From Sediminibacterium sp. (GTDB lineage: Bacteria; Bacteroidota; Bacteroidia; Chitinophagales; Chitinophagaceae): DNA of 64,000 bases. The notes under the pieces were generated by a model, which ran no database searches, had not been told where the DNA came from, and worked only from the letters and a program-made list of their open reading frames with translations. Positions 37,496 through 64,000 of the stretch are shown here, one piece after another. Made by a program: the position numbers and the translations under genes. How positions within the stretch are numbered: the first letter of the stretch is position 1; every line of letters starts with the position of its first letter. The stretch spans positions 25,742 through 89,741 of the forward strand of contig CBDDIT010000045.1 in assembly GCA_965229175.1 (NCBI GenBank). The letters are read 5' to 3'.

Positions 37496-37522
37496 GTGAT
37501 AACATTTGAAAAACAACCTATT

Positions 37523-38993
37523 CTAGTTCACTATCTTAAGATCGATTCTCCTGTTAATTCTCCTTCCGGATTCTGTGTTATTATCAGCGATAGGTTTCCC
37601 GGGGCCATATCCTTCTGCCCTAAGCCTGCTCTTGTCAATTCCGCCGTTCGTGATAATATACTGAGCAACAGCTATCGCCCTTTTTAAACTCAGGGCCATA
37701 TTCCAACTCATAGATCCCCTATTATCCGTATTCCCCTCAATATTAAGGCGTATGGAAGGATTGCGTTGTAGTATCGCAATTACTTCATCGATTACCGCAA
37801 ATGAACCCGGAAGTATGCTATCACGCCCTTCCGCAAATACAATTCTTCTTCCGGTAGCCAACAACTTTCCTTTCAACTTCGAAAGGCTGTCACCCACCAT
37901 TCTTTCCTGTATCTCCCTATTTACTAATGGCCTATCTACCAATGGCCTATCTATCACAGGGGGGATGATGTAACCCGGCACTCTTTTCGGGTTATTCCCT
38001 GCTTCACCGGATGTATCAACCTGCTTTACACTGGCTGCTGGTGTACCCTGTATGAAGGATTGCTGGCTATTTGCGCTATCGGCTTTCTTAGCCGCCTTAC
38101 TATCCAAAAGAACGGCTTGGGCCTTCAGGCTATTAATGGAATCCGGCTGAAATGAATTTTTTAAAGCAATACCCTGCAAGCTATCTTCTCTTCGAATTGG
38201 TTTAATCTCACCTTTATCCACTGTATACGGTTGTACACTAATATTAATGTTGGTTACCCCCCGTGCTAACATATCTTCTTTAGTCAGTTCCGACTTACTT
38301 ACTGTATCCACCTTAGTTGTTAAATGTAACGTACTGTCTGATGAAACATTGTGGTCCGTAAGCGGAAGGCTCAGCGGCGCAGCAGGTTTTCTAACTCTTT
38401 TCAGCGGGAAACCCATACCCACCGAATAATTGAAATAGTTTTCCGTAGTGGGAAAGTAGTTCATATTATAGGCAACAACGGTATGTAAAAAAACACCTCT
38501 CCCCATACTAAGCTGCAGTCCCAAACCAGGCCGGTATATAGATAGCCAGGTAGCTCCCGCCATACACTGAAAAACCCAGTCCTGCATACACATAAGGAAC
38601 CATAATATGATTGTCGGCGAGTAACTTAATATTCAGCCCACCCGAAGCCTCCACCATTAACTTCTTACTGGCCGAATCAGCAATACTGGAATGATCTGAA
38701 AAAGGGTGTTTAGTCACCGCAGCATTAATGGAACCGACAAAATCTATATTCGGGTTGAGGGTACCTTGAAGATAACTTATGCTTATTCCCGGAGCCATTT
38801 CCGAAACTTTCGTCCACCGGTTATTCAGCAAAACATCCGTAAAAGATGATCTGCTGAAGAGATTAGGAGTATAGATATCCTTTAGGGAAAAAGAAAATTG
38901 AATGGTAGGAGGTTTTCGTTTACCCTTCATTTTTTGACTGAAAGCACCGGTTACACTGAATAACACTGAAAAAAAAGTAAGAAATAGTCTCAT
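37523..38993 (-). pseudogene. OmpA-family outer-membrane protein (N-terminal barrel plus C-terminal OmpA_C peptidoglycan-binding domain) with an apparent frameshift
   Basis: ORF 38993-38508 has a signal peptide (MRLFLTFFSVLFSVTGAFSQ) and beta-strand-like segments that end ..VPYVYAGLGFSVYGGSYLAIYIPAWFGTAA*. ORF 38593-37523 continues in another frame as ..GLGLQLSMGRGVFLHTVVAYNMNYF... Its C-terminus reads RRIVFAEGRDSILPGS...IRLNIEGNTDNRGSMSWNMALSLKRAIAVAQYI...RRINRRIDLKIV. The frame junction lies near 38525-38545. Confidence 0.7.
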
Positions 38994-51000: not shown

Positions 51001-51935
51001 CCATCTGAGTTGGTAGTAGCAGACAAAACAAAAGAACCAGTACCGTAGGTTTTGGTAATATCGGCAAGACCCAGTTGTGGCACGGCTTTCTCTACCGTAA
51101 TAGTGGTTGTGATAGATCTAGCTATATAATTAGCCGTTTCGGGCATGACCAGTGTAATAACGGCAGTACCTGTATTATGTACATTAGCTACAGCTGTTTG
51201 GTTGCTGGTAGCTCCAATACTAATTACATCGGTATTATCACTTGAAAAGCTGATAGGATTTGCTGAATTAACAGCAGGCGTTAACGTAAATGGCGCATCT
51301 CCGTATGCTTTGGTGATATCAGCCAGCGATAAGGTTGGCGTAGCTTTTACAACAACAGCACTAGCCGTTATGGTTAACGGCCCGAAATCCGCTGAAGCAG
51401 CCAACGAAACAGTAATGGTTGCCGTACCGGCACCTGCTACCGTAGCGGTTGTTCCACTAATACTTATGACACTGGTATTACTGCTGCTGTACACGATTGC
51501 CCCGGGTGAATTGGTAGTAGCAGATAATACAAAAGTACCATCCCCATATACCTTGGTAATATTGACCAATGACAAGGTAGGATTAAAAACATTTCTATAC
51601 GCATACAGAAGGCTATTGCCCGTACCTGCGCTGATGATCTCTGTGCGCCCATCTCCATCTATATCGGCTGCCTCAATAAATCCGGTGCCACTTCCGGTAA
51701 ACGTTGCCTGGGTTACGAATGATGCGGCCGTTACAGCGGCCCCCGTTACTGCCTGGCTACGTAAGAAATATACTAGGCCATTCGTATTATCTGAATAGGC
51801 TATATCTGCTTTACCATCCCCATCCAGGTCCGAAGCTACCAGATCATAAGGAACGCCCGGTACGGTACCCAAAGATACGTGCGCCTGGAAACTGGCCTGA
51901 CTAAGTGAACCCGGAACAGCTATATTACGGAACAC
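39072..51935 (-). CDS. C-terminal portion of a giant T9SS adhesin: 2 FG-GAP blades, about 45 Ig-like (BIG2/MBG-like) units, a PKD-like domain and a type-B T9SS C-terminal sorting domain
   Basis: The ORF is 4287 aa and has no signal peptide. The N-terminus has the FG-GAP blades SDLDGDGKADIA and ADIDGDGRTEII. Then 39 units of 80-85 aa follow, of the form ..ITKVYGDAPFTLSATTNSDGAISY.SSNPSVVSISGNTATVVGAGTATITA.VAATANY.AAS.TATVTV, plus three ~180-aa bipartite inserts. The PKD-like segment (FTYSVSCVSKAGTFTST...NYQVKLVA) is at ~39590-39840. The CTD (YVYAPNSFSPNGDGINDLF...KGWDGRYNGVPVPVGTYIWVV) is at ~39075-39350. The called GTG start at 51935 is probably not a real start; see the poly-G finding. Confidence 0.85.
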   Translation of the reverse strand: MFRNIAVPGSLSQASFQAHVSLGTVPGVPYDLVASDLDGDGKADIAYSDNTNGLVYFLRSQAVTGAAVTAASFVTQATFTGSGTGFIEAADIDGDGRTEIISAGTGNSLLYAYRNVFNPTLSLVNITKVYGDGTFVLSATTNSPGAIVYSSSNTSVISISGTTATVAGAGTATITVSLAASADFGPLTITASAVVVKATPTLSLADITKAYGDAPFTLTPAVNSANPISFSSDNTDVISIGATSNQTAVANVHNTGTAVITLVMPETANYIARSITTTITVEKAVPQLGLADITKTYGTGSFVLSATTNSDGALNYESGNTGVIVLSGQSNATASMNAAGTAQVTVTQAATSNFQAFSVTANVTVLKATPTVNIEPSSITAKYGTAPFTYLVSVSPVPDGTVTFTSSNSQVASVDGNIVTLDKGGTATITANVAATAGYYATSATAQVTVTQATASVTFNSFSKTYGEGSFDLTATTTSDGTIGYVSSNPALLEINGKTATIKGAGTVQVIATVPATGNFMSASATATVDISKANQSLTLSGLPTSPYKLKDFVNQEIPLTATSTSGLPVVISLGDGSPAELVNGTGLKSTSTTGIIEIIYAQAGNENFNAITKTSSFDVVKDQQSISYTTALPGTVLYQTGLTITLTGVATSGLSVTYSVQSGPGVVDNNTGILNITGTGSVLITASQAGNTFYNQAPDISNTIIVSQGVPSISLANMTKRYEDADFVLNGITTSDATIHYTSSAPAIVKIVSPNIASILDGGAASITAYVDATANFVAASATANITILQATPVLTLSPSTVVYGDGPFSLTPKTVTTSNGAITYTSPDASVISINGSQVTIVGGGTAIVTATLSPTARYVSVSATTTVDVKRTTPELSLAPISKTFGDGSFTLSATTNYFGGPITYSSSDPNVISINGTTATVAGGGTATITVNVAETANFPSFSATTTAIVSRATPTLNFANITKTFGEADFALTATTNYYGGAITYTSSNPSVINISGTSTGEVKGGGTADITIYLAETANFNALSATATATVGRATPTLNFANITKTFGEADFALTATTNYYGGAITYTSSNPSVINISGTSTGEVKGGGTADITIYLAETANFNALSATATATVGRATPTLNFANITKTFGDADFTLSATTNYYGGAITYSSSDAAVVSISGTNTGVVVGGGTVTITVSVAETTNFNAYSTTAIVTVGKLTPTLALADITKTFGDADFTLSATTNYYGGAITYSSSDAAVVSISGTNTGVVVGGGTVTITVSVAETTNFNAFSATATVTVGKLTPTLALADITKTLGDADFTLSATTNYYGGAITYSSSDAAVVSISGTNTGVVVGGGTASITIQVAETVNFNAFSVTASAIVGKITPTLSLAPISKSFADQPFTLSATTNYYRGTIIYTSDNTSVVSISGTNTAVVHGVGTATITITVAETADYFAYSTTATVRVGKVIPTLSLAPISKVFGDQPFTLSATTNYYGGELMYSSDNTAVIAISGTTTAVVKGAGTATITVSVGETAYFAAASATTSVSVSTASSTISLGDISKVYGDASFTLSATTNSNGLISYTTDAPGVLSISGNQVTIIGAGTAHVTASVAATANFAAASVTASVYVSPATGSITISPASIVANYGVAPLTYTLSSVVNSDGVVSYASSNPAVISVVGTTATVMGSGVATITASVSATANYTAASATASVTVTSGSTTISFSNINKVYGDGSFTLNAVSNSGGAITYFSADPSIISVSGNTATILKAGTVTLTAEVAATPQYGAATATAIAVVSKATQVLSLSGLPDSGVPLSTYLNVPIQLAGSSTAGLSVTLSLGAGSPATLSVDDRLTLTAATGTLTVIYSQPGNENYNAASGSLTVDVTRSNQAISFVPALPSSVGYQPGLTLSLTGSASSGLTVTYTVQSGSASVSGNVLTVLGGGTVILTADQSGDNVYNAAPTQWHTINVTRAAVSIEHNNISKVYGDGSFVLSATTNSDGVVEYVSSDPLVLSVSGNIATVVGAGNAILTVSVPATANYVAASTTANVSVSVATGTLSVSPSSISTVFALTGAGTVYTFSSTSNSNGVVSYSSSDPSVIAVVGTTATVKGAGTATITASVAATANYTAASATVSVVVSRASATVTLAPMSKTYGDASFTLGGTTNSDAGITYSSSNPLVVSVSGNTATVVGAGTAVITASVTQTTNYTAATTTANVTVDKASATIHLNDISKVYGDAAFTLSATTNNPAGVITYSSDAPSVVSISGNTATIHSGGVATITATVAASANYYAASTTATVTVAAATPNINMAAISKVYGSAPFTLSATTNSDGAISYVSADPYVLGINGNTATVTGGGSTTVKVMVAATANFAAASVTVAVTVSTVTTTISITPAVTNIIFTGAPQSYTLTATTNSDGAVTYASSDPSVVSISGNTATVKAAGHATITATVAATANFIAASSTASVSVSTASSTISLANISKQYGDAPFTLSAVTNADGLVTYTSSNAGVVTISGNSATVTGAGSAIITATVAATANFAAASTTATVTVSKQTPTLTITPTSINAVNGAAPLTYTLNYSTNSNGIVSFASSNTSVALVSGNTVSIVGAGSATITATVAATTNFAASSATATVTASKEMPVINFANISRTYGDADFTLKAITNSDGAITYTSSDPSILSITGSQATIHKAGTVHVTADIAATTNFAAVSATSTVVISKAKQVLTLAGIDVYPLSYLYFTNEKLALSATSTSGLAVTLTLGAFTTSGVADLTGNLLSILADSGNVNVELSQAGDDNYEPAGSSVNWNIQGDNQRIVYTTDLPATVVYEPGKTIALTAQSTLENNGSNNFPITYSVSGPGVITGNTLLITAAGTIIVTANQAGDPGLFINPAPSLQKIITVTRAVPTITADDIAKTFGDAPFTLTATTNSDGDISYVPENSLSKSVVVINDNTATVTGAGSTHITVNVAETNNYLAGSATLIMLVLKSPATLSIAPAAINTVYGSGTMSYTLTSTTASDGVVSYSSSNTSVVRINGNIATVVGAGSAIITASVPATRNYQAASSQVTVNVSKLAASISNFHPLSKTYGDPDFLLGATTNSDATITYTSSDPSVISISGNRASVVSGGSAIITASVAQTANYGAASATANITVNSNTPTLSLANVSKVYGDAQFILAAVTNSNGAISYVSDDPSVISIVANKATIRSGGTAHITATVAATANFVSVTTTATITVSAALPTLSMADITRAYGSGSFVLSAATNSDGLVTYTSSNPAVLSINTTAATVGVAGTATITVQVAGTANFAAVSATAMVTVYAATPTITLTPTSITAVYGVSPMTYTLSATALSGGAITYVSSNPSVVSISGNIATITGGGSAIITATVAATANFTANSVTAAVVVSAGAGTITLADITKVYGDAPFTLSAVTNSGGAITYTSSNPSVIAVNGNTATVVGAGNATITANVAATTSYSSASIAAMVRVSAASGTITLGNLNKVYGDVPFTLSATTNSGGAISYISSDPSVVSITGETVTIVGAGTATISANLAATNNYTAATTTATVTVSPSNGTIAMGNLNKVYGDVPFTLSATTNSGGAISYISNDPSVVSITGQTATIVGAGTATITANLAATTNYTGATTTATIKVGAATSTVVMGNINKVYGDAPFTLSAVTSSNGPISYVSSDAAILSINGNTATIQGAGSAVITVNVAATAGYPAMSATATVTVAKATPVMSFSNTSKVFGNAPFVPGVSTNSPGTLRFASNNLSVVSFVDSMAFINGGGQATVTVTVAETANFMPYTITATITVLQAPATIAMTNLNKSYGDAPFALTSTTNSDGAVVYESSNAAIVTISGNTATITGAGTATITARVPATANFLAASTTVSLFVEDFNPAASSDKIMGPDYICLGSQANYTDSLSISGGTWSSSNSSIISISASGVATALTAGTAVINYTIKVGSRVIVMSKSVTVQALPSVSITSVTNRICTGTDLILQASNTGLISYTWYRDGAVIAAGTNNLNSFSTQLPGTYTLSVADANRCSVEATNSITLTTISKPAPDFTYSVSCVSKAGTFTSTTVSNDPLPVNYSWSVDNSLVSNSQSFNYQFAGTGNYQVKLVASIAGCDAAKDSVTKSVIVADPVPAEKTVVNVLKNTATQLSARNIGVSYTWYPSKYLDDSTIVNPVITADTGIVYTIKIVQASGCQTIDTLQVIAFSEDKGYVYAPNSFSPNGDGINDLFLLNTVSIKTLNRFIIYNQYHQVMFETSDVNKGWDGRYNGVPVPVGTYIWVVQAVTTDGKTVVRSGAVNIIK
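41040..41525 (-). repeat. Two adjacent 243-nt units with high nucleotide identity
   Basis: Compare 41107-41280 with 41350-41523, offset 243 nt. Long identical runs include cctgttatgcttaccacagacggatca and gatatagctgatggcaccgcc. The encoded units are GNLNKVYGDVPFTLSATTNSGGAISYIS(S/N)DPSVVSITG(E/Q)T. Confidence 0.75.
47328..49316 (-). repeat. Block of eight 249-nt (83-aa) NYYGG-type units that includes near-identical tandem copies
   Basis: Anchor gtcttcgtaatgttggcaaag recurs at 48532, 48781 and 49030. Anchor gtcttcgtgatatctgcc recurs at 48034 and 48283. The period is exactly 249 nt. Copies 48532-48780 and 48781-49029 differ at only 2 positions that I could find (48725 g/a and 48762 g/a). Confidence 0.85.
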
Positions 51936-54900
51936 AAATACTTGAGATGGTGCCCCCCCCCCCCAATGGCCAGGTCAATTTTACCATCGCCATCAAAGTC
52001 ACCTGAAGTGATCACCCTTGCACCTACACCGTTGGCAACATACGTAACGCGATTTGTAAATGTAATACCTCCAATTCCGTTTGACGTATTTCTATACAAA
52101 TAAATAGTTTGACTAGTAGTGCAAGCTGCCAGATCCAATTTACCATCCCCATCAAAATCATTAATCGTAAACCGCTTTCCGGACTGGATTCCCTTGGCAT
52201 CTGAAAGAAGGTACCTGGACCTAAATGAAAGGGACCCTACATCCGTAGATGAGTTAAGATAAACAGAGATGCCGGAACTGCCCATAGTTACCAGGTCAAT
52301 TTTACCATCACTATCAAAATCACCTGCTCCCGCCTGTTCTGCATTGTTCAAAAGCGTAACTGTGAATGCTGATGCAAAACTGCCTGCTGTAATACTTCCG
52401 CTGGTGGCGGTATTGAGGTACACCGTTGCCAATGCACTGCCTGTATTGGTAACCGCAATATCTAATTTTCCGTTCCCGTCAAAATCGGCTACCAGAACAC
52501 TGGTAGCAGGTGTGGCAGACAGGGTAACCGGTGCATCGTAACTAGTGGTGCTGATACTACCCTTTGTAGCAGTATTGCGTAATACCGCTACACCGCCATC
52601 CGTTGCGGTTACTATATCTATTTTACCGTCGCCGTCAATATCTCCATAAGCCACGGCTCTCGCAGTGCCGGGTAAGGTAAAATCTACTTTTGACAGGAAA
52701 CTCGTATTGCCATTACTGCCCCCGGCATAAGTAACGGCAAAGGAGGTTGCACTATAGGCTGTATATCCTGCGCTGATATCCGTTACACTAATATCTTTAT
52801 AGGCAGTTCCGTACGGTACATTTACCGTTAAGCTACTGGTGGTACCCGTTACAACCTGGGCTTTTACAGGGCCAAAGTAAACGGCATTATTGCCTGGCGT
52901 TGCATTAAAACCCGACCCGTTTATAATAACGCTTGTGCCAATGGTACCGGTTACCGGTGTGATGGTGCTGATAGATAATACGGGCTTGTTTCTAAAGACG
53001 GCAACCCCCATGGCATCTCCATTACCCACCACTATATCCAGCTTGCCATCATTATCAAAATCGGCCAATCCAATACCGTAAGGGTCGGATGAGTTAATGC
53101 TTTTAAATAGTTGCATTGGGCTAAAACTGGCCGCTGTAATACTGGCATTTGCGCTATTTGTGTTTCTTAATATAACAATACCTTGATTAGTCGGGTCTGC
53201 CGCCACAATATCTACCTTACCATCACCATCATAATCACCTACTGCTACTGATACCGGCGACGCAGATGAGAAAATGACTACCGCTGTACCAAAGCTGCCG
53301 GTAGTAAAACTACCCGTACTGGAATTATTTTGAAGTATCGCTACACCAGCATACCCAATACTCCCATAATAACTAGCAGCTACCAGATCCGGCTTGCCAT
53401 CTCCATTAACATCTGCACTTGCTAAACTGTTTGGACCACCAAGGTCAGATGTATCTAGTCTTACAGCAGCATCGAAAGACATCGTTCCGCTACTGGTATT
53501 ACGTAACAAGTATATGAAATCGCCCGTGCCGAGCGGACCGCCAGCAACAGCAATGTCTAGTTTACCATCGCCATTCAGGTCAGCGGCTATCATACTAACA
53601 GGACTACGATTATACAAATAACTGCCAATGTAAAAATCTGATTTTACTGCGAAGCTCAGGCCTGTCAGGGATGATTGGTTAAGGAATACAGAAACTGTTT
53701 CGGTATTGTCAAGGTTACTACCCATATTACACAACGCAATATCGGTTTTCCCATCCCCATCAAAATCACCTGAGGTTATAGCGCATGGATTTGCACGGGT
53801 AATTAGTACCAGCTGCGTGGCAAAACTAATAGACCCGGAAGAAGAAGTATTCAGGTATACGGATACTGTATTATCGCCTTTGTTGGTTACCGCGATATCC
53901 AGCTTTCCATCGCCATTATAATCAGCTACCGTAACACCAGTAGGATTATTACCTGCTGCAAAGCTTAGCGCAGCCGCAAAACTGCTGCTGTTAATGGACC
54001 CGGTAGTGGCTGTATTTCTCCAAACCGATATACTATTCCCCCCTGTTCCATTCGCGGCTACTATATCTACCTTTCCATCACCATCAAAATCCCCATACGC
54101 TACATCTTTACTGCCGACCGAGGAGAATAATACAGGACTGGCAAAAGTGGTGTTACCCGCATCGCCACCACTATAGGTAACATTATAGGCAATACTGGTA
54201 AATGCTGTATACCCGGTGTTAATGTCGGTTACCGTAATATTCTGGTAACTGGTTCCGTAAGGCGCTGTAACCGTTAGCGTATTTATACTGGCTGCTGTTA
54301 CCGTGGCAGCAGTGGCGCCAAAGAAAACACGGTTATTAGCAGCAGTGGTATTAAAATTATTACCATTAATAGTAACGTTACCCAATACCGGCCCCGCAAT
54401 AGGGGTAACGGAAGTTATGCTCATCACCAGCCTGTTACGCAATACAGACACGGAGGATAGCAAATTATTGGATGCTACCAGGTCCTGTCTGCCATCTCCA
54501 TCTATATCCGCAAATGCTACTGTATAATTTGAGGTTCCTGTGTAAGCGTAGGCGGTTGCAAAACTGGCGGTGGTTAGTGATGTGCCCGGTGTTTGATGGG
54601 TATTGCGTAATAAAAAAGCCCCGGCCCATGCGTTGTTCAAAGCCAAGTCTGTTTTACCATCCCCATCATAGTCGCCTGCCACAATTGCTACGCCGCCATT
54701 TGCTATTGAAATACCTATGCCACTATCGAAGCTAAGTGTGCCTGCTACGGTATTGGTATTGGTAACCAGTGATACCTTGCCATAGGAAGATGCGGCAATG
54801 TCTGGCAAACCATCCTGGTTAAAATCGCCTACTGTAATACCAGAAAAAGCTTCTGAAGAACCCAATACATATTCGCCTCCAACAAACCGAATGGAACCAT

Positions 54901-57900
54901 AACTGGTCGATGTGTTCAGGCGAACCTTAATATATGAATAAGCTTGATCTGCTTCAACAAATGCCAAGTCTATCTTTCCATCCTGGTTAAAGTCGCCGGT
55001 TGCTAATAATCTTTTCCTAAGAGTATAGACCTGAATACCATTCGTAGTAAAGTCAAACGAGATCTTTCCCGCAGACAATGTGGTATTTAGATACGTACCA
55101 ATACCAGTAGAACTACTATTAGATACAACAAAATCTGGCTTTCCATCCCCATCAAAATCAGCTACCTGCACATCAATTGGCGAGCTGCCTGCACCGGTGG
55201 TAAAGGTAAGCGGGCTAGCAAAACTGCCGGCAGAGATATTACCCGAACTATGGGTGTTACGGTATATGGCAACCGAATTGGCGGATTGGTTAACAACAAC
55301 AATATCCTGCTTGCCATCGCCATCAAAATCGGCTACCTGCATTTTTACAGGGCCGCTCTCTGTGGTAAAATCAACTTTGGTGGCCAGGCTGCCGCTGGTA
55401 ATGGTGCCGGCCGTGGCAGTATTCTGTAGTACAGAGAAGCTATTGGCCCCGTTATTAACCACCACAAGATCCACTTTTCCATCGGCATTAAAATCTCCGA
55501 AGGCAACATCGGTTGGACTTTGCCCGGTAGCCGTGGCCACCGCTGTTTCCAGGGTGGTAAGGCCACCATCGCCCCCACTATACGTAACATTGAAGGCGGT
55601 ATTGGTGTAAGCGGTATAACCGGTGGTGATATCCGTTACCTGCAGGTTTTGTAAACCGGCGCCGTATGGCACTTGTACCACGAGTGTATTGGTAGACCCC
55701 TGGGTTACCAGTGCCGCAGTTGGGCCAAAATAAACTTTGTTATTGGTAGGTGTTGCATTAAAATTAACACCCTTAATGGTTACGCTAGTTCCTATAATGC
55801 CTGATACAGGGCTGAAGGATACCATTTTCATTAACTTCCGGTTTCTTAATACTGCCAGGCTACTGGTTGTGTTATTAACCATCAGCAGGTCCTGTGCCTC
55901 ATCTCCATCTATATCGGCCATGGCTACCTGGTATGGGCTATTACCGGTAATCGCATAAGAAACACCGGCAGCAAAACTGCTGGTGGTAATATTACCGCTT
56001 ACCTGCATATTACGGAAAACGCTAACCGAACTGCCGCTATAATCGGCTACAGCCAGGTCAAGCCAGCCATCGCCATCATGATCGGCTACCGCTATAGAAA
56101 CCGGGTTACTGCCAGTGGTAAAGCTTACAGGGCCGTTAAAGCTGATGGTACCGGATGAGCCGGTATTGCGCAGAACGGCCATACCCGAACTGCCGGTAAC
56201 CGCCAGGTCGGGCTTGCCATCCTGGTTAAAATCGCCGGTTACTATTCTATTGGAACCCGCTATGGTTGTTGTGGTTGCTTCCGTAGCAAAACTGATGCTT
56301 CCGCTACCCGCTGATGTATTCCGGAAAATCGATAAACTGGCAGAGCCGGTGGCTACTGCTATATCTGTTTTGCCATCCCCATCATAATCGCCGGTTGTAA
56401 TACCCTGTGGATTAGCACTGGTTATGGCTGTATAAGGTGTGGCAAAAGATATGGTTGACGGCCCGGTAGAATTGTTTAGATAAACATACACATTGGTAGT
56501 TCCATTATGGGTAACCGCCATATCCATTTTGCCGTCTTTGTCAAAATCGGCTACCGCAATATTATACGGGGTGGCCAGGGTGGTAAAGGTTACCTGCGTG
56601 GCAAAACTGGCCGCTGTAATGCTGCCGTTAGTAGCCGTGTTGCGTAAAACAGATACCAGGTTACTGCCTTTATTGGTTACCAGTATATCCAGCTTACCAT
56701 CGCCATCCATATCGGCCAGGGTTACTCCCTCCGGTGATGTGCCGACGGTAAAATCAACTTTTGTAGCCAGGCTGCCTGCATCTATCAAATTGGCGGTTGC
56801 GGTATTTTTTAGTACCGAAACGGTTCCGCCGGTGGCATTGGCCACTACTACATCTACTTTACCATCATTATCTATATCACCATACGCCAGGCCCTGCGGT
56901 GCCGACCCCGTGGTAAACGTTTTAAAAGGCATGAAGACGGTATTACCATTATCGCCACCATCATAGGTAATATTGTATGCCGAAGTACTATACGCAGAAA
57001 ATCCGCTGGTGATATCCGTTACCGACAAATTCTGGTAGCTGGAACCATACGGTACCGTTACACTAAGGGTAGTGCTACTGGCCTGGGTTACGGTTGCCGC
57101 TGTGGCACCAAAATATACTTTGTTATTAGTAGCAATTGAGTTAAACCCTACCCCCTTGATGGTTACTGTACTGCCAATAGCACCCTGCACCGGGTTAAAG
57201 GACGTCATGTACATGGTTAACCTGTTTCGCAAAACAGACACCGTGTTACCGGCGCTGTTACTGGTTACCAGGTCCAGTTTTCCATCCCCGTCCAGATCGG
57301 CCATTCCTACGCCATTAGGCGTACTGCCGGTGGCATAGGAAACCATAGCAGCAAAAGTACCGGCACTAAATGTTGATGAAACAACAGCTGCATTGCGATA
57401 TACCATCACGGTACTGTTTGCCGAATTAGCAACCGCCAGGTCGGGCCAGCCATCGCCATCATAATCGCCCGCCGCTATGCGGTATGGAGCGGTACCTATG
57501 GCGATGGTTACCTGCGTCTGAAAACTGAAATTACCGGCGCCTGAACTGGCATTGGCTAACAAACTTATACTTGTGCCTGCTGAATTGGTTACTGCCAGAT
57601 CTATTTTTCCATCCCGGTTAAGATCTGCCGCTACAATCCCGCGTGGTGTAGTGCCTACGGTAAGGGTATTGAAAAGCGTAAACCCAATGAGTCCATAGCC
57701 GGTGGAAGTATTCTGGAAAATTGATACGGTACCGGCACCGGAATTAACCACGGCTATATCCGTTTTTCCATCCCGGTCAAAATCGCCGGTGGCTATATCT
57801 GCAGGCGTTGTACCTGCCGTATACGTACTTGATGAGAACGATATCCTACCAGGGGCAATGGACGTGTTCATAAACACGGTAATGCTATTGGCAGTGGAAT

Positions 57901-60900
57901 TGGATACTACCATATCCATTTTGCCATCGCCATCAAAATCACCAGTGGCTACATGGTTGAGTGAAGAGGCGGTTGCAAAAGTAAAGGCAGTTGCAAAACC
58001 AGCGGCTGTAATATTCGCTCCCGCTGTTGTGGTATTGAGCAATACGGTTACAAAACTGGAACCGCCATTGGTAAAAGCTATATCCAGTTTTCCATCCCCA
58101 TCAAAATCGGTCACATTTACACTATTGGCACCCGTGCCAGCTCCGCTTGTGGCAAAACTAACCTGTGTATTAAAACTACCTTTGGCATTAATATTACCCA
58201 CGGTAGCTGTATTTTGGAGAACAGACACGCCATTGGTTGTATTATTAGCGGTTACCAGGTCTATTTTACCATCCAGGTTCAGATCTCCATACGCCACATC
58301 CTGCGGGGCGCTACCTGTTGCAAATGCCTGCTGCCCCATGAACACGGTATTGCCGTTCTCGCCCCCGCTATAAGTAATATTATAGGCGGTATTGGTATAG
58401 GCGGACAAGCCCGATGTGATATCAGTTACCGATAAATTGCGGTAGCTGGCCCCATAAGGCACGGTTACTACCAGGGTGTTGGTACTACCCTGTGTGATGG
58501 CTGCCGCAGTGGCGCCAAAATATACCCTGTTATTGGTGAGTGTTGGATTAAAATTGGTTCCTGTTATGGTTACCGTACTGCCCACCGCACCCGCTGTAGG
58601 GGTAAACTGGGTGATGGTCATGATAAGCCGGTTTCTTAACACAGACAGGGTGGCGCTGCCATTATTGGCCACTACCAGGTCCTGTTCCCCGTCTCCATCC
58701 ATATCGGCAAAACCTACGCCATTGGGGGTAGTTCCGCTTGCGTAGTTTACACGGGTGGCAAAGCTGCTGGCAGTAATGTTGCCGCTAACGGAAAGATTTC
58801 GGAGGATGCTCACATTGGCGCTGCCGCTGTTGCCCGCCGCCAGGTCCAGCCAGCCATCTCCATCATAATCGCCTGCAGCAATAAACAATGGTGTGGTTCC
58901 CACGCTCAGGTTAACGGCGGTACCAAAGCCAATACTACCCGCGCCTGAGCTTGTATTTTGCAGGATGGCTACGTTTGAACTGCCGGCAACAACGGCAATG
59001 TCTGGCTTACCATCCCTGTTAAAATCACCCGACACAATGCCGGATGGGCTTGTACCCGCTGCGCTATTGGCTGCAGTGGCAAAACTTACACCGCCGGCCA
59101 CGCCGTAATTGGCGCTGGTATTTCTAAATACGCTGATCGTTGTAGTTCCATTATTGGCCGAGGCGATGTCTGGTTTGCCATCCCCATCAAAATCATCCGA
59201 TACCAACGCGAATATCGTGGCCGGTGCAGTAAGCGTTAGGGTATTGGTAAAGCTGAGCGTATTACCCGATGACAAATTTAAAAACAGTATGATGCTATTA
59301 TTGGTGCTGTTGCCCACTGCTAGGTCTGCCAAACCGTCTCCATCATAATCTGCTATGGCCAGTGCGCGTGGTAGTGTTCCCCCGCTTGAAAAGGTAAACT
59401 GCGTGGCAAAGCTGCCCGCGGTTATACTACCCTGGGTTGATGTGTTCCTGAAAACAGACACCGTATTATCCGTTGCATTTAACACAATGATATCCAGTTT
59501 TCCATCGCCGTTTATATCTGCCAACCTTACGCGCTGCGGCCCGTTGCCGGTGGCAAAACTTACCTGCGTACTAAAGCTGGCCGGGCTGGCTATTACACCT
59601 GCCGTTGCGGTATTACGAAGTACCGAAATAGTATTACTACCCTGGTTTACGTTTACAATATCTATTTTACCATCCTGGTCAAGGTCGCCAAATACTGCCT
59701 CTACCGGGTTGGTACCCACCGCAAAGGTTTGCTGGCCCATAAATATCGTCGCCCCATTATTTCCGCCGCCATAGGTTGGGAAGAATGAGGTAGTACTGAA
59801 AGCCGTTAACCCCGTAGCAATATCCGTTACGGAAAGATTCTGGTAGGATGCGCCTATGGGGGCCGTTACTGAAAGGCTTGTAGTAGATCCTGATAAAACG
59901 GTTGCAGCTGTAGCACCAAAATATACCACATTACTTGATGTGGTTGCATTAAAATTTCTTCCAGTAATGTTTACCACCGTACTGCCAGCAGTTCCTGAAC
60001 TTGGCGCAAAAGAGGTAATAGCTATCGGCGTATAATTTCTGCGTACCGATATAGTATTGCTTCCAAAGTCGGCAGTTACAATATCCTGCTTTCCATCTCC
60101 GTTTATATCGGCAAAAGCTACCTCATACGGGGTATTGCCCGTAGGATACACTGTGGCAGTAAATGTATTGGCATTGAAAGCCCCCGATGTTGAAGTATTC
60201 CGGTAAACAGCTAAGCCATTGCCTACAGCAGCTACCACGGCAATATCTACCTTGCCATCCCCATCATAATCACCCGAAACGATACCACGTTGGGTACTAT
60301 ACACTGAAGTAGCATAGGGTATATCCTGCTTAGCCTGGAAGCTTATTGTGCTGCCCGAACTGGTATTCCTGTAAATGGCAATGCTCCTGTCGCCCGAACT
60401 ACCATTACTTAAAGCTATATCCAGCTTGCCATCTGCATCATAATCACCCACAGTTATCTGGTCTGGAAAAGCAGTAGTACCAAAATTTACGGCAGCAGCA
60501 AAGGTCATGGCTAAGCCTATGGCACCCGAACTGGTGTATACATTGCGGAATACTTGTAACCCCGATGTGCCGTCAATTGTTGCCCAGTTGGTTACCGCTA
60601 CATCCGTGTTGCCATCTCCATCAAAATCCCCCGCTATTATCGATTGGGGATTGCTTCTTGTAACAAGCCTTACAACCGGTAGAAAGGCGATAGTACCTAC
60701 CCGGGAGGCATTGGTTAAAAAGTAGGCCCGGTTATCCGTACTGTTTACAAACACTATATCTGGCTTACCATCCTTATTGAAATCTGCAATATCCAGCGAC
60801 TCAAAAGAACTGGAGATACTGGCAAGAACATCTCTACTTGGAAAACTTATACTGCCTATTGTACTTTGATTACGGGAAACTAAAAGATTACCAGCTGCTA

Positions 60901-63900
60901 CTTTAGTAGTATATACAATATCTAAATTGCCATCGCCATCCAGGTCAACCAACTTGATCTTGCTAACAGGGGCGGTTGCAGTAAAAGTAGTTATTGTTAA
61001 TGCGGTAAAACTAATAACAGAACTGGTGCTCGTATTCAGGTACACCTTCACCCTACTGGTGGAACCAGAAGCACTATCCGCAGTTACAATATCTATCTTA
61101 CCATCACCATCCACATCCCCATACGCAATAGCCATAGGATTGTTTACTCCCGTAAAGGAAACACGGCCCGCAAAACTACTATATGCTGTTCCACCCGATC
61201 CGCCAGCATAGGTTACCAAAAACGGACTGGAGAAACCGGCAGTATAACCCGTTGCCGTATTAGCCACCGTTACATTCTGGTAAGAAGCTCCGGTAGGTAC
61301 CGTTACCTTTAACGTGGTGGTACTGGCCTCCGTTACAGCGGCGGCTACCGCACCAAAGAATACTTTGTTATTAGCGATATTATTGGTGAAACTATTACCG
61401 CTGATCGTTACGCTACTGCCTATCGCACCCTGTAAAGGACTTATACTGCTGATATTGGCTTGTATATCGATATTCTCTGCGACATTGATTCTATTAGAAG
61501 GCGTACCTGAATAATAAGCAATATCAAGCCTGCCATCACGGTTCAGATCCTGCAATACAAAACCACCAGGGGCTGCGCCAGTCAATACCTGCTGAAACAA
61601 AAAGCTACTCGATGAAAAAGCACCGACAGATGCAATATTGTTTCGAAATACAAAGAAAACATTCGAACTAGTAGTATTAGCAATAATATCTATTTTACCG
61701 TCCCCATTATAATCACCCGAACTCACGCCTCTAAGACTACCAACATTAGGCGAAGCACTGAAATCATAGGCAACAGGTGTATCAAAACTAATGCTCGTTG
61801 TAGACGTATTACGCAAAAAATAAACAGCTTGCTCCGAAGTACTAACAGCCACCAGGTCTTCAGCACCATCTCCATCATAATCGCCACTGCTAAGATACAA
61901 TGCATTACCAGCTCCTACTCTTGTGTTAATAATGTTTGTGAAACTAAGATTACCGGGTATACTATTATTCTTATAAACGAAAAGATTATTGCCACCGGGA
62001 TTACTGCTGCCTGCTGCCAGATCTACTTTGCCATCCCTATCAAAATCTACTGCCCATATTCCGTAGGTTCCTGCACCAGCATTAATCATGGTAATATCTA
62101 CACGAGAAAAGCTTAGGTTACCGCCACCCGAACTGGTATTAAGAAAAATACTACCAATAGTACCCACACTATTTGATACCGCGACATCTACATTTCCGTC
62201 GCCATCAAAATCTGCCGTTACTACCCGGAATGGAGCTGTATTGTTAGGACCGGTAGTCAAGGTAAGCGCGGAGGAAAAACTGGAAGAGTTGATGACTCCT
62301 GCCGTAGCGGTATTACGAAAAAAATTAAGCGTACCGGCAGATGAATTACCAACTACCAGATCAAGCTTGCCATCATTGTTAAAATCTGCCTTACCTAAGG
62401 GAACGTTAATTGTTGCAGTATAACCGGTTGGAAACAATGTTTCGGTAAAACTGGTAGTACTTAATGGTACACCAGCTGCAGAAGTATTGCGGAAAAAAGA
62501 CAAGTTAGTGGAACTCGCTTGCATAACAAGGTCTACAGCTCCGTCTCCATCAAAATCACCGGATTCTATCAAACTCGAATTGATACCATATGTAGCTATC
62601 GTATAACCGGTATTCTGAATATTCTGGCGGAAACCGGCTGTATTACTAATACCCGTAAACGTAGGTACAAACCTGGATGAACTACTGGCACTACCATTTG
62701 TTTCTGTATTTACCACCGTTATATAATCCAACGATGCTCCCAAAGGCACTGTTACCGTTAGACTGGTTGCGGTAGCTGCGCTTACCGTAGCCGCCACACC
62801 GCCAAAGTATACCGTATTGCTGAGCTGGTTATTGGCATTAAAACCAGTACCCGTTATTGTTACAGAAGCTGTTCCCGGAACTCCGCTCTGCGGGCTAAAA
62901 GAAGTTACCGTAACCGGTACTGTATTTCTTAATACCGATATGGTATTACCCCCAAAGTCTGCGGTTGCGATATCCTGTTTACCATCCCCGTTAATATCAG
63001 CAAATGCCACATCATACGGGGTAGTGCCCGTAATAAATACAGTGTTGGTGAACGTACTGGCACTAAAGGCTGCTGATGTTGTTGCTGTATTGCGGTACAC
63101 TGCTACGCCATTGCCGGTAGCTGCTGTAACGGCTATATCTATCTTTCCATCACCATCATAATCACCCGAAGCGATACCACACATGATGCTAAATCCGGCA
63201 GTTCCTACCGCAAGGTCTACTTTGCCCTGGAAACTTATCGTACCCGGTGACCCGGTGTTCCTGTATATAGAAATAGAATTGGTAGTGATATTACTTACCG
63301 CTATATCCAGCTTGCTATCTCCATCATAATCGCCTATCGTTAACTGGTTGGGCTGGTTATCAAGCGTAACCAAGTTCACAGCTCCCGCAAAAGTTAACGC
63401 TACCCCTATTGCCCCCGAACTGGTATATAGATTACGGTATACCTGTATGCCAGTGCTTGCTGTTGATCCCCAGTTGGATACCGCTACATCCACATTGCCA
63501 TCACCATCAAAATCCCCGGCTACTACCGAGCGCGGATTGGTGGATGTTGGCATACCTACATACCTGATAAAGCTGATGTTTCCTACCGTTGAGATATTGG
63601 TTAAAAAGTAAATATTGTTATCCCGGGTACTGGCAAGCACAATATCTGGCTTGCCATCTTTATTAAAATCAGCAAAATCAAGCGACTGGGATGTCACGTT
63701 TACGCCACCAATACTGATCCAGCTGCCAAAACTGATATTACCGGTTGTACTGGTATTAAGCGCTGCAGCAAAATTAGTACCGCTCGTATTCGTCGAGACG
63801 GCAATATCCAGCTTTCCATCACCATCCAGGTCTACCAACCGGATACGGGTAATAGGAAGGCGGCCAGTTGTATTAGTTGGCGTTAGTGCCGTAAAACTGA

Positions 63901-64000
63901 TCACCGAGCTGGTACTGGTATTCAGGTACACCTTAATGCGACTGTAACCGCCAGTATTGATACTATCTGCTGTTACTATATCTACCTTGCCATCATTATC
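51920..64000 (-). CDS. N-terminal/central portion of the giant T9SS adhesin (5' end outside the window): tandem seven-bladed FG-GAP/VCBS propellers separated by IPT/TIG domains
   Basis: The frame stays open from 63931 to the window edge; my translation of 64000->63932 is DNDGKVDIVTADSINTGGYSRIK, continuing the repeat. There are 61 DxDxDG blades of the form ..FRNT...SF.....G..P..v..GDFDGDGK.DIAV.N. Eight IPT domains of the form ITSF.P..G..GS.VTI.G.NFN....NN.VYFGATAA.V...S...L.V.VP.GASYQNLSVTD lie at 62657-62914, 61208-61459, 59771-60025, 58370-58621, 56963-57214, 55580-55831, 54173-54424 and 52727-52978. The ORF has no CTD and ends 31 nt after the G12 tract (the stop codon is 51920-51922). Confidence 0.85.
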   Translation of the reverse strand, partial: DNDGKVDIVTADSINTGGYSRIKVYLNTSTSSVISFTALTPTNTTGRLPITRIRLVDLDGDGKLDIAVSTNTSGTNFAAALNTSTTGNISFGSWISIGGVNVTSQSLDFADFNKDGKPDIVLASTRDNNIYFLTNISTVGNISFIRYVGMPTSTNPRSVVAGDFDGDGNVDVAVSNWGSTASTGIQVYRNLYTSSGAIGVALTFAGAVNLVTLDNQPNQLTIGDYDGDSKLDIAVSNITTNSISIYRNTGSPGTISFQGKVDLAVGTAGFSIMCGIASGDYDGDGKIDIAVTAATGNGVAVYRNTATTSAAFSASTFTNTVFITGTTPYDVAFADINGDGKQDIATADFGGNTISVLRNTVPVTVTSFSPQSGVPGTASVTITGTGFNANNQLSNTVYFGGVAATVSAATATSLTVTVPLGASLDYITVVNTETNGSASSSSRFVPTFTGISNTAGFRQNIQNTGYTIATYGINSSLIESGDFDGDGAVDLVMQASSTNLSFFRNTSAAGVPLSTTSFTETLFPTGYTATINVPLGKADFNNDGKLDLVVGNSSAGTLNFFRNTATAGVINSSSFSSALTLTTGPNNTAPFRVVTADFDGDGNVDVAVSNSVGTIGSIFLNTSSGGGNLSFSRVDITMINAGAGTYGIWAVDFDRDGKVDLAAGSSNPGGNNLFVYKNNSIPGNLSFTNIINTRVGAGNALYLSSGDYDGDGAEDLVAVSTSEQAVYFLRNTSTTSISFDTPVAYDFSASPNVGSLRGVSSGDYNGDGKIDIIANTTSSNVFFVFRNNIASVGAFSSSSFLFQQVLTGAAPGGFVLQDLNRDGRLDIAYYSGTPSNRINVAENIDIQANISSISPLQGAIGSSVTISGNSFTNNIANNKVFFGAVAAAVTEASTTTLKVTVPTGASYQNVTVANTATGYTAGFSSPFLVTYAGGSGGTAYSSFAGRVSFTGVNNPMAIAYGDVDGDGKIDIVTADSASGSTSRVKVYLNTSTSSVISFTALTITTFTATAPVSKIKLVDLDGDGNLDIVYTTKVAAGNLLVSRNQSTIGSISFPSRDVLASISSSFESLDIADFNKDGKPDIVFVNSTDNRAYFLTNASRVGTIAFLPVVRLVTRSNPQSIIAGDFDGDGNTDVAVTNWATIDGTSGLQVFRNVYTSSGAIGLAMTFAAAVNFGTTAFPDQITVGDYDADGKLDIALSNGSSGDRSIAIYRNTSSGSTISFQAKQDIPYATSVYSTQRGIVSGDYDGDGKVDIAVVAAVGNGLAVYRNTSTSGAFNANTFTATVYPTGNTPYEVAFADINGDGKQDIVTADFGSNTISVRRNYTPIAITSFAPSSGTAGSTVVNITGRNFNATTSSNVVYFGATAATVLSGSTTSLSVTAPIGASYQNLSVTDIATGLTAFSTTSFFPTYGGGNNGATIFMGQQTFAVGTNPVEAVFGDLDQDGKIDIVNVNQGSNTISVLRNTATAGVIASPASFSTQVSFATGNGPQRVRLADINGDGKLDIIVLNATDNTVSVFRNTSTQGSITAGSFATQFTFSSGGTLPRALAIADYDGDGLADLAVGNSTNNSIILFLNLSSGNTLSFTNTLTLTAPATIFALVSDDFDGDGKPDIASANNGTTTISVFRNTSANYGVAGGVSFATAANSAAGTSPSGIVSGDFNRDGKPDIAVVAGSSNVAILQNTSSGAGSIGFGTAVNLSVGTTPLFIAAGDYDGDGWLDLAAGNSGSANVSILRNLSVSGNITASSFATRVNYASGTTPNGVGFADMDGDGEQDLVVANNGSATLSVLRNRLIMTITQFTPTAGAVGSTVTITGTNFNPTLTNNRVYFGATAAAITQGSTNTLVVTVPYGASYRNLSVTDITSGLSAYTNTAYNITYSGGENGNTVFMGQQAFATGSAPQDVAYGDLNLDGKIDLVTANNTTNGVSVLQNTATVGNINAKGSFNTQVSFATSGAGTGANSVNVTDFDGDGKLDIAFTNGGSSFVTVLLNTTTAGANITAAGFATAFTFATASSLNHVATGDFDGDGKMDMVVSNSTANSITVFMNTSIAPGRISFSSSTYTAGTTPADIATGDFDRDGKTDIAVVNSGAGTVSIFQNTSTGYGLIGFTLFNTLTVGTTPRGIVAADLNRDGKIDLAVTNSAGTSISLLANASSGAGNFSFQTQVTIAIGTAPYRIAAGDYDGDGWPDLAVANSANSTVMVYRNAAVVSSTFSAGTFAAMVSYATGSTPNGVGMADLDGDGKLDLVTSNSAGNTVSVLRNRLTMYMTSFNPVQGAIGSTVTIKGVGFNSIATNNKVYFGATAATVTQASSTTLSVTVPYGSSYQNLSVTDITSGFSAYSTSAYNITYDGGDNGNTVFMPFKTFTTGSAPQGLAYGDIDNDGKVDVVVANATGGTVSVLKNTATANLIDAGSLATKVDFTVGTSPEGVTLADMDGDGKLDILVTNKGSNLVSVLRNTATNGSITAASFATQVTFTTLATPYNIAVADFDKDGKMDMAVTHNGTTNVYVYLNNSTGPSTISFATPYTAITSANPQGITTGDYDGDGKTDIAVATGSASLSIFRNTSAGSGSISFATEATTTTIAGSNRIVTGDFNQDGKPDLAVTGSSGMAVLRNTGSSGTISFNGPVSFTTGSNPVSIAVADHDGDGWLDLAVADYSGSSVSVFRNMQVSGNITTSSFAAGVSYAITGNSPYQVAMADIDGDEAQDLLMVNNTTSSLAVLRNRKLMKMVSFSPVSGIIGTSVTIKGVNFNATPTNNKVYFGPTAALVTQGSTNTLVVQVPYGAGLQNLQVTDITTGYTAYTNTAFNVTYSGGDGGLTTLETAVATATGQSPTDVAFGDFNADGKVDLVVVNNGANSFSVLQNTATAGTITSGSLATKVDFTTESGPVKMQVADFDGDGKQDIVVVNQSANSVAIYRNTHSSGNISAGSFASPLTFTTGAGSSPIDVQVADFDGDGKPDFVVSNSSSTGIGTYLNTTLSAGKISFDFTTNGIQVYTLRKRLLATGDFNQDGKIDLAFVEADQAYSYIKVRLNTSTSYGSIRFVGGEYVLGSSEAFSGITVGDFNQDGLPDIAASSYGKVSLVTNTNTVAGTLSFDSGIGISIANGGVAIVAGDYDGDGKTDLALNNAWAGAFLLRNTHQTPGTSLTTASFATAYAYTGTSNYTVAFADIDGDGRQDLVASNNLLSSVSVLRNRLVMSITSVTPIAGPVLGNVTINGNNFNTTAANNRVFFGATAATVTAASINTLTVTAPYGTSYQNITVTDINTGYTAFTSIAYNVTYSGGDAGNTTFASPVLFSSVGSKDVAYGDFDGDGKVDIVAANGTGGNSISVWRNTATTGSINSSSFAAALSFAAGNNPTGVTVADYNGDGKLDIAVTNKGDNTVSVYLNTSSSGSISFATQLVLITRANPCAITSGDFDGDGKTDIALCNMGSNLDNTETVSVFLNQSSLTGLSFAVKSDFYIGSYLYNRSPVSMIAADLNGDGKLDIAVAGGPLGTGDFIYLLRNTSSGTMSFDAAVRLDTSDLGGPNSLASADVNGDGKPDLVAASYYGSIGYAGVAILQNNSSTGSFTTGSFGTAVVIFSSASPVSVAVGDYDGDGKVDIVAADPTNQGIVILRNTNSANASITAASFSPMQLFKSINSSDPYGIGLADFDNDGKLDIVVGNGDAMGVAVFRNKPVLSISTITPVTGTIGTSVIINGSGFNATPGNNAVYFGPVKAQVVTGTTSSLTVNVPYGTAYKDISVTDISAGYTAYSATSFAVTYAGGSNGNTSFLSKVDFTLPGTARAVAYGDIDGDGKIDIVTATDGGVAVLRNTATKGSISTTSYDAPVTLSATPATSVLVADFDGNGKLDIAVTNTGSALATVYLNTATSGSITAGSFASAFTVTLLNNAEQAGAGDFDSDGKIDLVTMGSSGISVYLNSSTDVGSLSFRSRYLLSDAKGIQSGKRFTINDFDGDGKLDLAACTTSQTIYLYRNTSNGIGGITFTNRVTYVANGVGARVITSGDFDGDGKIDLAIGGGGHHLKYLCSVI
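51953..51964 (-). repeat. Homopolymer C12 on the plus strand (G12 on the coding strand) at the junction of the two giant ORFs
   Basis: By direct count, tgcccccccc|cccc gives 12 C. This is the longest homopolymer I noticed in the window. It encodes GGGG in the upstream ORF frame. Confidence 0.95.

Follow-up and report, generated by a model that had tools for sequence, protein, structure and literature searches.

A giant propeller-IPT gene of Sediminibacterium that, as assembled, is broken at a G12 tract and probably encodes a surface adhesin

Background

Propellers of the VCBS/FG-GAP type mainly bind carbohydrates or proteins (PMC9218822), and two FG-GAP proteins of Vibrio, Bap1 and RbmC, act as biofilm adhesins (PMC3161981). 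Type IX secretion system (T9SS) cargo that carries a type-B C-terminal sorting domain (CTD) stays at the cell surface, where it is bound by a PorP/SprF-like outer-membrane protein; PorE, which has an OmpA_C domain, links the complex to peptidoglycan, and SprF likewise binds SprB (PMC9143113). The subject of this report is a giant gene that joins these two themes, found in a 64,000-nt stretch of DNA from Sediminibacterium sp. (assembly GCA_965229175.1, contig CBDDIT010000045.1, positions 25,742 to 89,741), here called the window. The encoded protein, called the giant protein below, is probably a T9SS-exported surface fibril, a multivalent adhesin with a chain of propellers at its outer tip. What is new is a single gene that spans 8,309 codons or more, the T9SS type-B context of that gene, a stalk of 46 domains, and a break in the reading frame at a run of twelve Gs (G12).

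The gene is encoded on the minus strand, as are all of its parts described below. Its frame is open from the window edge (64000) through 4026 codons to a TAG at 51920-51922, which defines open reading frame (ORF) A (51920..64000). ORF A contains propellers 1-8, IPT domains 1-8 and blades 1-5 of propeller 9. The gene continues, out of frame, as ORF B (39072..51935; 4287 codons). Once one G is added, a single ORF spans 8,309 codons within the window, with its stop at 39072 and no internal stop. The 5' end of the gene lies beyond position 64000, and the codon and module counts are thus lower bounds.

The propeller-IPT array

Pfam profiles match ORF A as follows: FG-GAP_3 (E=0) in 53 stretches, FG-GAP (5.6e-210) in 31, and TIG (PF01833; 5.8e-55) in eight. 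The scores for PF01839 and PF13517, 677.6 and 1078.5 bits, are above the gathering thresholds (22.1 and 26.9). Searching ORF A for the cation loop of integrins with the regular expression D-x-D/N-x-D-G-x-x-D gives 60 complete loops, which lie 50-62 residues apart inside groups of seven and are separated by jumps of 139-147 residues between groups. The window edge truncates a further loop, and two lie past the frameshift in ORF B (DLDGDGKAD and DIDGDGRTE), giving 63 blades in nine groups of seven across ORF A and the start of ORF B. The pattern D/N-x-D/N-x-D/N-G-x-x-D/E fits 62 complete loops plus the one at the edge; three of the Ca-type loops have S, N or E in place of G at position 6. From their sequence, these DxDxDGxxD loops are predicted to bind Ca2+. 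The IPT core motif V[YF]FG..AA occurs at residues 397, 880, 1359, 1826, 2295, 2756, 3225 and 3707, with spacings of 483, 479, 467, 469, 461, 469 and 482 residues (1383-1449 nt). Every IPT core residue and all 63 Ca loops are intact.

The array begins at the window edge with propeller 1 (62939..64000), whose first blade is cut by that edge, followed by IPT/TIG 1 (62654..62938). Then come propeller 2 (61490..62653) with IPT/TIG 2 (61205..61489), propeller 3 (60053..61204) with IPT/TIG 3 (59768..60052), propeller 4 (58652..59767) with IPT/TIG 4 (58367..58651), and propeller 5 (57245..58366) with IPT/TIG 5 (56960..57244), the module used for structure prediction. Propeller 6 (55862..56959) and IPT/TIG 6 (55577..55861) were included in the two-module prediction described below. 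The remainder consists of propeller 7 (54455..55576), IPT/TIG 7 (54170..54454), propeller 8 (53009..54169), IPT/TIG 8 (52724..53008) and the last propeller, 9 (51585..52723), which has blades 1-5 in ORF A and 6-7 in ORF B and is not followed by an IPT domain. Propellers 2-8 have seven blades each, and all eight IPT domains are supported by both the Pfam TIG match and the core motif.

The modules have diverged to different degrees. Modules 1 and 3 (subfamily a) share 59% of their residues and modules 4, 5 and 6 (subfamily b) 52-54%, against a background of 33-46%; propeller 2 belongs to the most divergent module, with 33-37% identity to the others. Compared with module 5, the eight complete modules are 35-54% identical in protein. 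The longest similarities between modules in DNA are 60-82% identical, that is, the modules differ by 18-40%, and repeats this different could not have been collapsed or expanded by the assembler. An expansion or collapse artefact is therefore rejected.

An earlier note on this DNA, which was made from the letters of the window, had described most of this array. Its nine groups of seven blades (63 in total) and its Ca-type loop in each blade are borne out by the loop search across both ORFs, with the three substitutions at position 6 as a qualification, and its eight IPT domains spaced 1383-1449 nt apart are reproduced exactly by the core-motif positions. All of the peptides that it quoted are found in the ORF A translation, the position at which it ended the array, 51585, is the last codon of propeller 9, and the gene is indeed open at the window edge, with ORF A running to 64000. 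The Pfam families that it named (FG-GAP_3, FG-GAP and TIG) all match, and the assembly artefact that it had raised as an objection is contradicted by the DNA divergence of the modules. Two of its claims hold only in part. The domain count stands, whereas the array is not an unbroken coding sequence but spans two ORFs as assembled, because of the frame break at G12. Likewise the module subfamilies are real, while the multi-module segmental duplication read from them is not supported: module 1 resembles module 3, but module 2 is only 37% identical to module 4, so that what is seen is similar single modules two positions apart, and block duplication is not demonstrated. The picture was also incomplete, in that the frameshift, the 46 Ig domains and the type-B signal define the identity of the protein.

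Predicted structure of the modules

Module 5 (469 residues) was modelled with AlphaFold2 from an alignment with the other modules and 120 homologues. The model has a predicted local distance difference test score (pLDDT) of 94.8 and a predicted template modelling score (pTM) of 0.91, and consists of 28 strands (7 x 4) followed by a seven-strand beta-sandwich. The sandwich is the IPT domain, with its seven strands at residues 386-466 (pLDDT 89-97). A Foldseek search of the PDB with this model returned ITFG2 first (9v80_B, E 1e-12, target-normalised TM 0.65), then CRTAC1 (9etn_A, E 1.5e-12), BBSome propellers and the integrin alpha4 and alphaV heads (~1e-9 to 1e-10); about 380 columns of module 5 align to the seven-bladed propellers of ITFG2, BBS9 and integrins. 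At the sequence level, the module profile matches the propeller of a "secreted esterase" best (9oee_A, 2e-24), followed by CRTAC1 (3e-16), the Ca-binding blades of integrins alphaIIb, alphaV and alpha5 (~1e-6) and, weakly, the propellers of PL11/YesX lyases. With high confidence, the seven-blade groups are thus predicted to close into integrin-alpha-type propellers, each followed by an Ig-fold IPT domain. This agrees with the earlier note on both counts: the closed propellers with the 28 strands and pTM of the model, and the Ig fold of the IPT segments with the PF01833 match and the seven-strand sandwich.

A two-module fragment of 930 residues (propeller, IPT, propeller, IPT) gave a model with pLDDT 92.3 and pTM 0.85, which means that the prediction commits to a fixed arrangement of all four domains. 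Foldseek with this model found only local propeller matches (SF3B3, DDB1 and CPSF160, TM 0.2-0.3). There is accordingly no template for the tandem geometry, an arrangement with no counterpart among solved structures.

Presumed stalk and sorting domain

The propellers are followed by 46 tandem Ig-like units of ~82 residues (40080..51581), presumably a stalk or extender. Their consensus is ...ISKVYGDA.FTLSATTNS.G.I.Y.SSDP.VVSISGNTATI.G.GTATITV.VAATANF.AAS.TATVTVS. The unit matches known families only weakly, namely Big_2 (3.7e-5) and the Ig domain of the S-layer proteins Sap/EA1 (~0.009). More Ig-like segments lie between the 46-unit array and the C-terminus. Near the C-terminus, profiles identify a type-B T9SS sorting domain (39111..39335), with 48.9 bits for CHU_C (PF13585; cutoff 27) and 51.3 bits for TIGR04131 (cutoff 35). 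In the assembly, the sorting domain and the propeller part are in different frames.

Two adjacent 249-nt Ig-like units within ORF B (48569-49067, minus strand) are 99.2% identical, and the longest exact repeat there is 203 nt; the units next to this pair are 72-89% identical. Such identity points to a very recent tandem duplication, and the copy number of units at this site could be variable or mis-assembled.

The frame break at G12

The break lies in a run of twelve Gs on the coding strand (51953..51964, minus strand), which encodes GGGG in a blade turn and separates ORF A from ORF B. Blade 5 of propeller 9 is interrupted in mid-strand and goes on in the other frame: ORF A ends ...DFDGDGKIDLAIGGGGHHLKYLCSVI*, and the beginning of ORF B, VFRNIAVPGS..., is the rest of the same blade. 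Either 13 or 10 Gs (+1 or -2) would restore a single frame and a canonical blade. The blade then reads through the tract as ...DFDGDGKIDLAIGGGG(A)PSQVFVFRNIAVPGS..., the corrected junction being ...DLAIGGGG(A)PSQVFVFRN....

G12 is the sole run of G or C of at least 10 bases in the 64 kb, against a chance expectation of 0.31 for G10, and none of 100 shuffles reached the count. No poly-G run of at least 10 occurs in 79 related loci (~1.3 Mb). The break is also the only one in ~25 kb of coding sequence of the giant gene, and elsewhere in the window long ORFs stay intact across runs of G8/C8 and A8/T8. As an intragenic homopolymer of at least 8 nt that sets the reading frame, the tract has one of the properties by which contingency genes are recognized. 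A scan for promoters and terminators at the junction of ORF A and ORF B and at the end of the gene gave nothing above the shuffle expectation. ORF A has no T9SS CTD and ORF B has no signal peptide. With a front part that lacks the sorting signal and a back part that lacks the signal peptide, the gene is off as sequenced.

Relatives of the giant protein

To place the array among known proteins, 1.84 billion representative proteins were scanned exhaustively with HMMER, using module 5 as the query. The scan returned 126,452 matches at E≤0.001, of which 19,016 reach E≤1e-30. The best 150 of these 19,016 are 1,042-7,398 residues long, each with several matched stretches. Their propellers were counted with an IPT hidden Markov model built from the eight domains of the window and by grouping of Ca loops. 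Almost all have several propellers, with a range of 1-9 and a mode of 3; examples are P0121 (4,954 residues, 8 IPT domains), P0129 (6,941 residues, 8 propellers), P0122 (7) and P0229 (~9). The relatives start with a signal peptide, then an IPT domain; among the best 150, the terminal CTD is of type A in about 90 and CHU_C-like (type B) in at least 10. Their public names are generic, such as "gliding motility-associated-like protein", "uncharacterized protein YjdB" and "FG-GAP-like repeat-containing protein" (MDX2189123.1). With at least nine propellers, the giant protein ties for the most among the best 150. Because full-sequence scores rise with the number of modules, a far longer chain of this family would have outranked P0121.

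There are thousands of single-module versions, which have a signal peptide, an IPT domain, a propeller and a T9SS CTD. A word-indexed search with module 1 gave 1,570 matches, the best being proteins of ~650-700 residues with a signal peptide, an IPT domain, a seven-blade propeller and a type-A CTD, although word-indexed searches with window fragments returned only proteins of query-like length. The single-module matches come from Chitinophagaceae, Taibaiella, Puia, Ginsengibacter and many metagenome-assembled genomes (MAGs). The cultured genera Pedobacter and Mucilaginibacter have versions of ~1,800-2,200 residues.

The earlier note had called the architecture unusual and had suggested a survey of module number in related genomes. 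That survey, in the form of the best 150 of 19,016 matches with their 1-9 propellers, argues against the claim: because multi-propeller IPT chains are abundant in Bacteroidota (mostly 2-9 in this set), the architecture is not unusual, though it is unstudied. Literature searches found no papers on FG-GAP together with T9SS and nothing on multi-propeller IPT chains. The giant protein itself has no orthologue above ~40% identity in the searched collections (best ~37% over 3,700 residues), and a one-genome-per-species search across the frame junction gave nothing above 38% (best 37-38%). Among other proteins carrying the Ig-like unit, only P0210 has an array, of 12 copies versus 46, and six others have 1-3. 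The lack of an orthologue, the 46 Ig units and the at least nine propellers together make it an extreme and distinct member of its family.

FG-GAP propeller relatives with 25-36% identity were also seen in Acidobacteriota, Planctomycetota, Betaproteobacteria and Actinomycetota (e.g. L007, L015, L029, L042, L067 and L069). These groups are without T9SS, which argues that the propeller module is used with other export routes.

A probable surface fibril and its alternatives

The type-B sorting domain and the Ig array, combined with the propellers, indicate a T9SS-exported surface fibril that is most likely an adhesin. This is the favored interpretation and is probably correct; it includes a frame break caused either by slipped-strand mutation (phase-variable or recent) or by a miscounted homopolymer in the assembly. 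The Sec system would carry the protein across the inner membrane, the T9SS would recognize the type-B CTD, and a PorP/SprF-type outer-membrane protein would hold the C-terminus at the cell surface. The C-terminus would then be proximal to the cell and the propeller-IPT chain distal, with the 46-domain Ig array acting as a long extender of roughly 150-180 nm. At the tip, at least nine diverged propellers would bind ligands, the targets probably being glycans or surface proteins, and seven Ca2+ sites would rigidify each propeller. Nine diverged propellers and the binding functions of VCBS relatives suggest a multivalent and possibly multi-specific adhesin. The earlier note had proposed a Ca-stiffened rod. 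The two-module model fits a chain of defined geometry, and a Ca-stiffened chain would be consistent both with that confident model and with the seven Ca-type loops in each propeller; the stiffening by Ca is still a prediction.

Several points weigh against the adhesin interpretation. The gene is broken as assembled, and its N-terminus, hence any signal peptide, lies beyond the window edge. In the window, no PorP/SprF gene adjoins the giant gene, and the nearest lies on the opposite strand at a distance of 11.6 kb; the OmpA_C gene downstream of the giant gene (see below) has no PorP similarity and is itself apparently frameshifted. The pTM of the two-module model comes from a paralogue-rich alignment. 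Finally, no paper was found on the ligand, Ca binding or surface localization of the giant protein or its multi-module relatives.

The alternatives mostly concern the cause of the frame break. The true tract may be 10 or 13 Gs long, with the gene intact in the organism, and such a miscount deserves serious attention even if it falls somewhat short of being probable. Long G homopolymers are indel-error hotspots on all sequencing platforms. Both flanks of the tract are perfectly coding, a change of +1 or -2 gives a canonical blade, and there is no second defect in 25 kb. However, the intact long ORFs that cross 8-nt runs (G8/C8 and A8/T8) argue that the assembly is not generally indel-prone. In addition, the neighboring OmpA-like gene is frameshifted at a site that is not a homopolymer, which points to real mutations at the locus.

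A second possibility, which can be advanced only tentatively, is phase variation. Here G12 would be a hypermutable switch, ON with 10 or 13 Gs and OFF with 11 or 12, and the sequenced population would be mostly OFF. Phase variation classically affects large surface adhesins. The tract is unique in the 64 kb, exceeds every shuffle and has no equivalent of at least 10 Gs in the related loci; it sits in a blade turn that tolerates Gly, and it accounts for the sole break in the coding sequence. Homopolymers within coding genes are reported to serve as switches in many prokaryotes (PMC2831843). On the other side, the literature search found no paper on homopolymer phase variation in Bacteroidota, the tract is ~12 kb into the gene whereas classic switches are near the 5' end, and a tract length misjudged by sequencing or assembly would be indistinguishable. 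Phase variation refines the surface-fibril explanation and does not exclude it. A stronger joint version is doubtful: G12 would be a true on/off switch, the product of the in-frame gene would be a T9SS adhesin of >830 kDa, and in the ON state the at least nine modules would form a rigid Ca2+-dependent rod with nine distinct lectin-like sites. If true, the switch and rod would amount to the longest beta-propeller chain known in one polypeptide, in a tandem geometry with no PDB counterpart, under a mode of phase variation barely documented in Bacteroidota.

It is unlikely that the break reflects pseudogene decay, in which the adhesin and its downstream OmpA-like partner would both have been inactivated and be out of use. 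Two adjacent genes on the same strand do each have an apparent frameshift. Nonetheless, 8,309 codons contain one lesion and no stop codon, so any inactivation must be very recent, and neither the 63 Ca loops nor the IPT core residues show any damage. The split of the OmpA gene is, moreover, an apparent one, read from the window sequence.

A different kind of alternative questions the adhesin function itself. The propellers could be catalytic or enzyme-associated, resembling RGL11 lyases or the "secreted esterase", in which case the protein would be a degradative machine. Enzymes that degrade polysaccharides are often found among T9SS cargo, and the best sequence-level match in the PDB is that esterase (9oee_A), with weak matches to PL11/YesX. 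But Pfam and NCBIfam find no catalytic domain anywhere in the 8,309 residues, and the PDB profile matches are confined to the Ca-loop blades. A stalk of 46 domains bearing nine diverged copies fits binding and reach, and VCBS propellers are mainly lectin-like (PMC9218822). An enzymatic role is accordingly very improbable. The last reading, hardly credible, takes the ORF list at face value and sees two independent genes (or an assembly expansion, rejected above); ORF A and ORF B are indeed separate entries with a 16-nt overlap, but it is rejected since the blade sequence runs across the G tract, blade 5 of propeller 9 being cut mid-strand and resuming in the other frame, and since ORF B has no signal peptide and ORF A no CTD.

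Candidate anchoring genes and genomic setting

The next gene downstream (37523..38993, minus strand) appears to encode one OmpA-family protein of ~489 residues, in which a signal peptide and a barrel-like N-terminal part are followed by a low-complexity linker and an OmpA_C domain. The apparent 1-nt shift, near 38520-38590, divides the gene into ORFs of 161 and 356 residues. Its product may be a peptidoglycan-anchoring partner. The gene was also considered as a PorP/SprF-OmpA fusion, and this was rejected: neither Pfam at E≤1 nor a BLASTP comparison with two PorP proteins detected any PorP similarity.

The PorP/SprF-family gene of the window is at 26376-27449 on the plus strand (E 3e-41), and a second type-B cargo, a 727-residue protein with a CHU_C domain and SprB repeats, is encoded at 7337-9520 on the minus strand. 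These two genes argue that the genome encodes type-B anchoring machinery, though not beside the giant gene. Adjacency of PorP/SprF to type-B cargo is common but not obligatory. In two type-B relatives (P0403 and P0399), genes for PorP_SprF and then PD40+OmpA directly follow the relative's own giant gene, an order that matches the published complex of PorE, PorP and type-B cargo (PMC9143113).

Gene order is conserved in two unrelated metagenomic relatives (L080/L081 12619-18594 and L082 12746-18780). It runs from a multi-propeller type-B cargo through PorP_SprF, PD40+OmpA (PorE-like) and a WD40 propeller protein of ~600 residues to a final gene for a protein of ~1,100 residues with Reg_prop, Y_Y_Y and SpoIIE domains. 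This order suggests a dedicated cassette for anchoring and regulation.

The other genes of the window, among them ffh, a sigma-70 gene, rimM, lptF/G and a gene for adenine deaminase, indicate a chromosomal setting. The named Ffh sequences nearest to the one encoded here come from Sediminibacterium roseum (92% identity) and Hydrobacter penzbergensis (91%), which places the organism in the Chitinophagaceae. G+C, ~0.47 elsewhere, falls to 0.36-0.38 at 34001-38000, just downstream of the adhesin/OmpA locus. This stretch spans DUF3050 and DUF480 genes and two small ORFs (36365-36961 and 37082-37495), for which no family matches were found. A separate homopolymer, C8 at 5529-5536 on the coding strand, lies ~90 nt into a gene for a Y-family DNA polymerase (4305-5624, minus strand; impB/mucB/samB, DinB-like). 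The frame of this gene is intact across the C8; given its position close to the 5' end of this mutator-type gene, the run may be a slippage candidate.

Comparison with known systems

The value of the locus is mostly as an entry point. Chains of IPT domains and FG-GAP propellers make up an extensive T9SS surface-protein family of Bacteroidota from soil and fresh water, with thousands of members that are generically named and uncharacterized. The giant gene reveals no new fold, secretion route or principle. It is one of the largest members and offers nine diverged propellers in one protein for work on ligands, on Ca2+ stiffening and on how the T9SS handles a cargo of >8,000 residues, and G12 is a concrete test case for homopolymer phase variation in Chitinophagaceae.

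Among described proteins, the integrin alpha head likewise combines a seven-bladed FG-GAP propeller, bearing DxDxDGxxD Ca2+ hairpins, with a subsequent Ig fold (the thigh). It differs in that its Ca loops are found only in blades 4-7 and in that it is a eukaryotic protein with one propeller, a transmembrane helix and a beta partner. The giant protein was considered as an integrin alpha subunit and rejected, because it shares only the propeller and the Ig fold that follows; neither ORF A nor ORF B has a transmembrane helix or calf domain, and the protein ends in a T9SS CTD. The closest solved folds, CRTAC1 and ITFG2, are likewise VCBS/FG-GAP-type propellers with Ca loops, but they are single-propeller eukaryotic proteins with 12-18% identity.

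Bap1 and RbmC of Vibrio cholerae are secreted bacterial FG-GAP propeller proteins that mediate attachment (PMC3161981). Unlike the giant protein, each has only one propeller, into which a beta-prism lectin is inserted; they use the type II secretion system and are ~700-950 residues long. SprB of Flavobacterium johnsoniae and other giant type-B adhesins share with it the repetitive design, the type-B CTD and, as proposed for the giant protein, a PorP/SprF-like holder at the cell surface (PMC9143113). SprB is, however, built of SprB repeats (PF13573), and homology to SprB is rejected, since Pfam finds no such repeat in ORF A or ORF B.

The closest sequences are other Bacteroidota proteins. Single-module ones, such as P0053 of Taibaiella koreensis ("FG-GAP-like repeat-containing protein") and P0057 of Chitinophagaceae MAGs ("T9SS type A sorting domain-containing protein"), have an IPT domain and a propeller with 35-45% identity and seven Ca loops, and are T9SS cargo of ~650-700 residues with a signal peptide, IPT domain, propeller and CTD. 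They differ in having one module rather than at least nine, mostly a type-A CTD and no Ig-like stalk. The multi-module relatives include P0121 ("gliding motility-associated-like protein"), P0129, MDX2189123.1 (7398 residues, from Bacteroidota) and proteins of Pedobacter cryophilus and Mucilaginibacter gotjawali; they have the same alternation of IPT domains and seven-blade propellers, 2-9 in number, and a T9SS CTD, but their identity to the giant protein is at most ~37% over 3,700 residues.

In general design, the giant protein also recalls two unrelated groups. SiiE, LapA and MpIBP are fibrillar adhesins rigidified by Ca2+, in which an Ig-type extender carries distal ligand-binding modules, a similar design logic. 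LRP1 and megalin are chains of propellers and spacers; LRP1 has eight YWTD propellers between small spacers. In these groups the domain families, the secretion route (the type I secretion system) and the kingdom differ from those of the giant protein, which is an extreme member of a catalogued but uncharacterized architecture.

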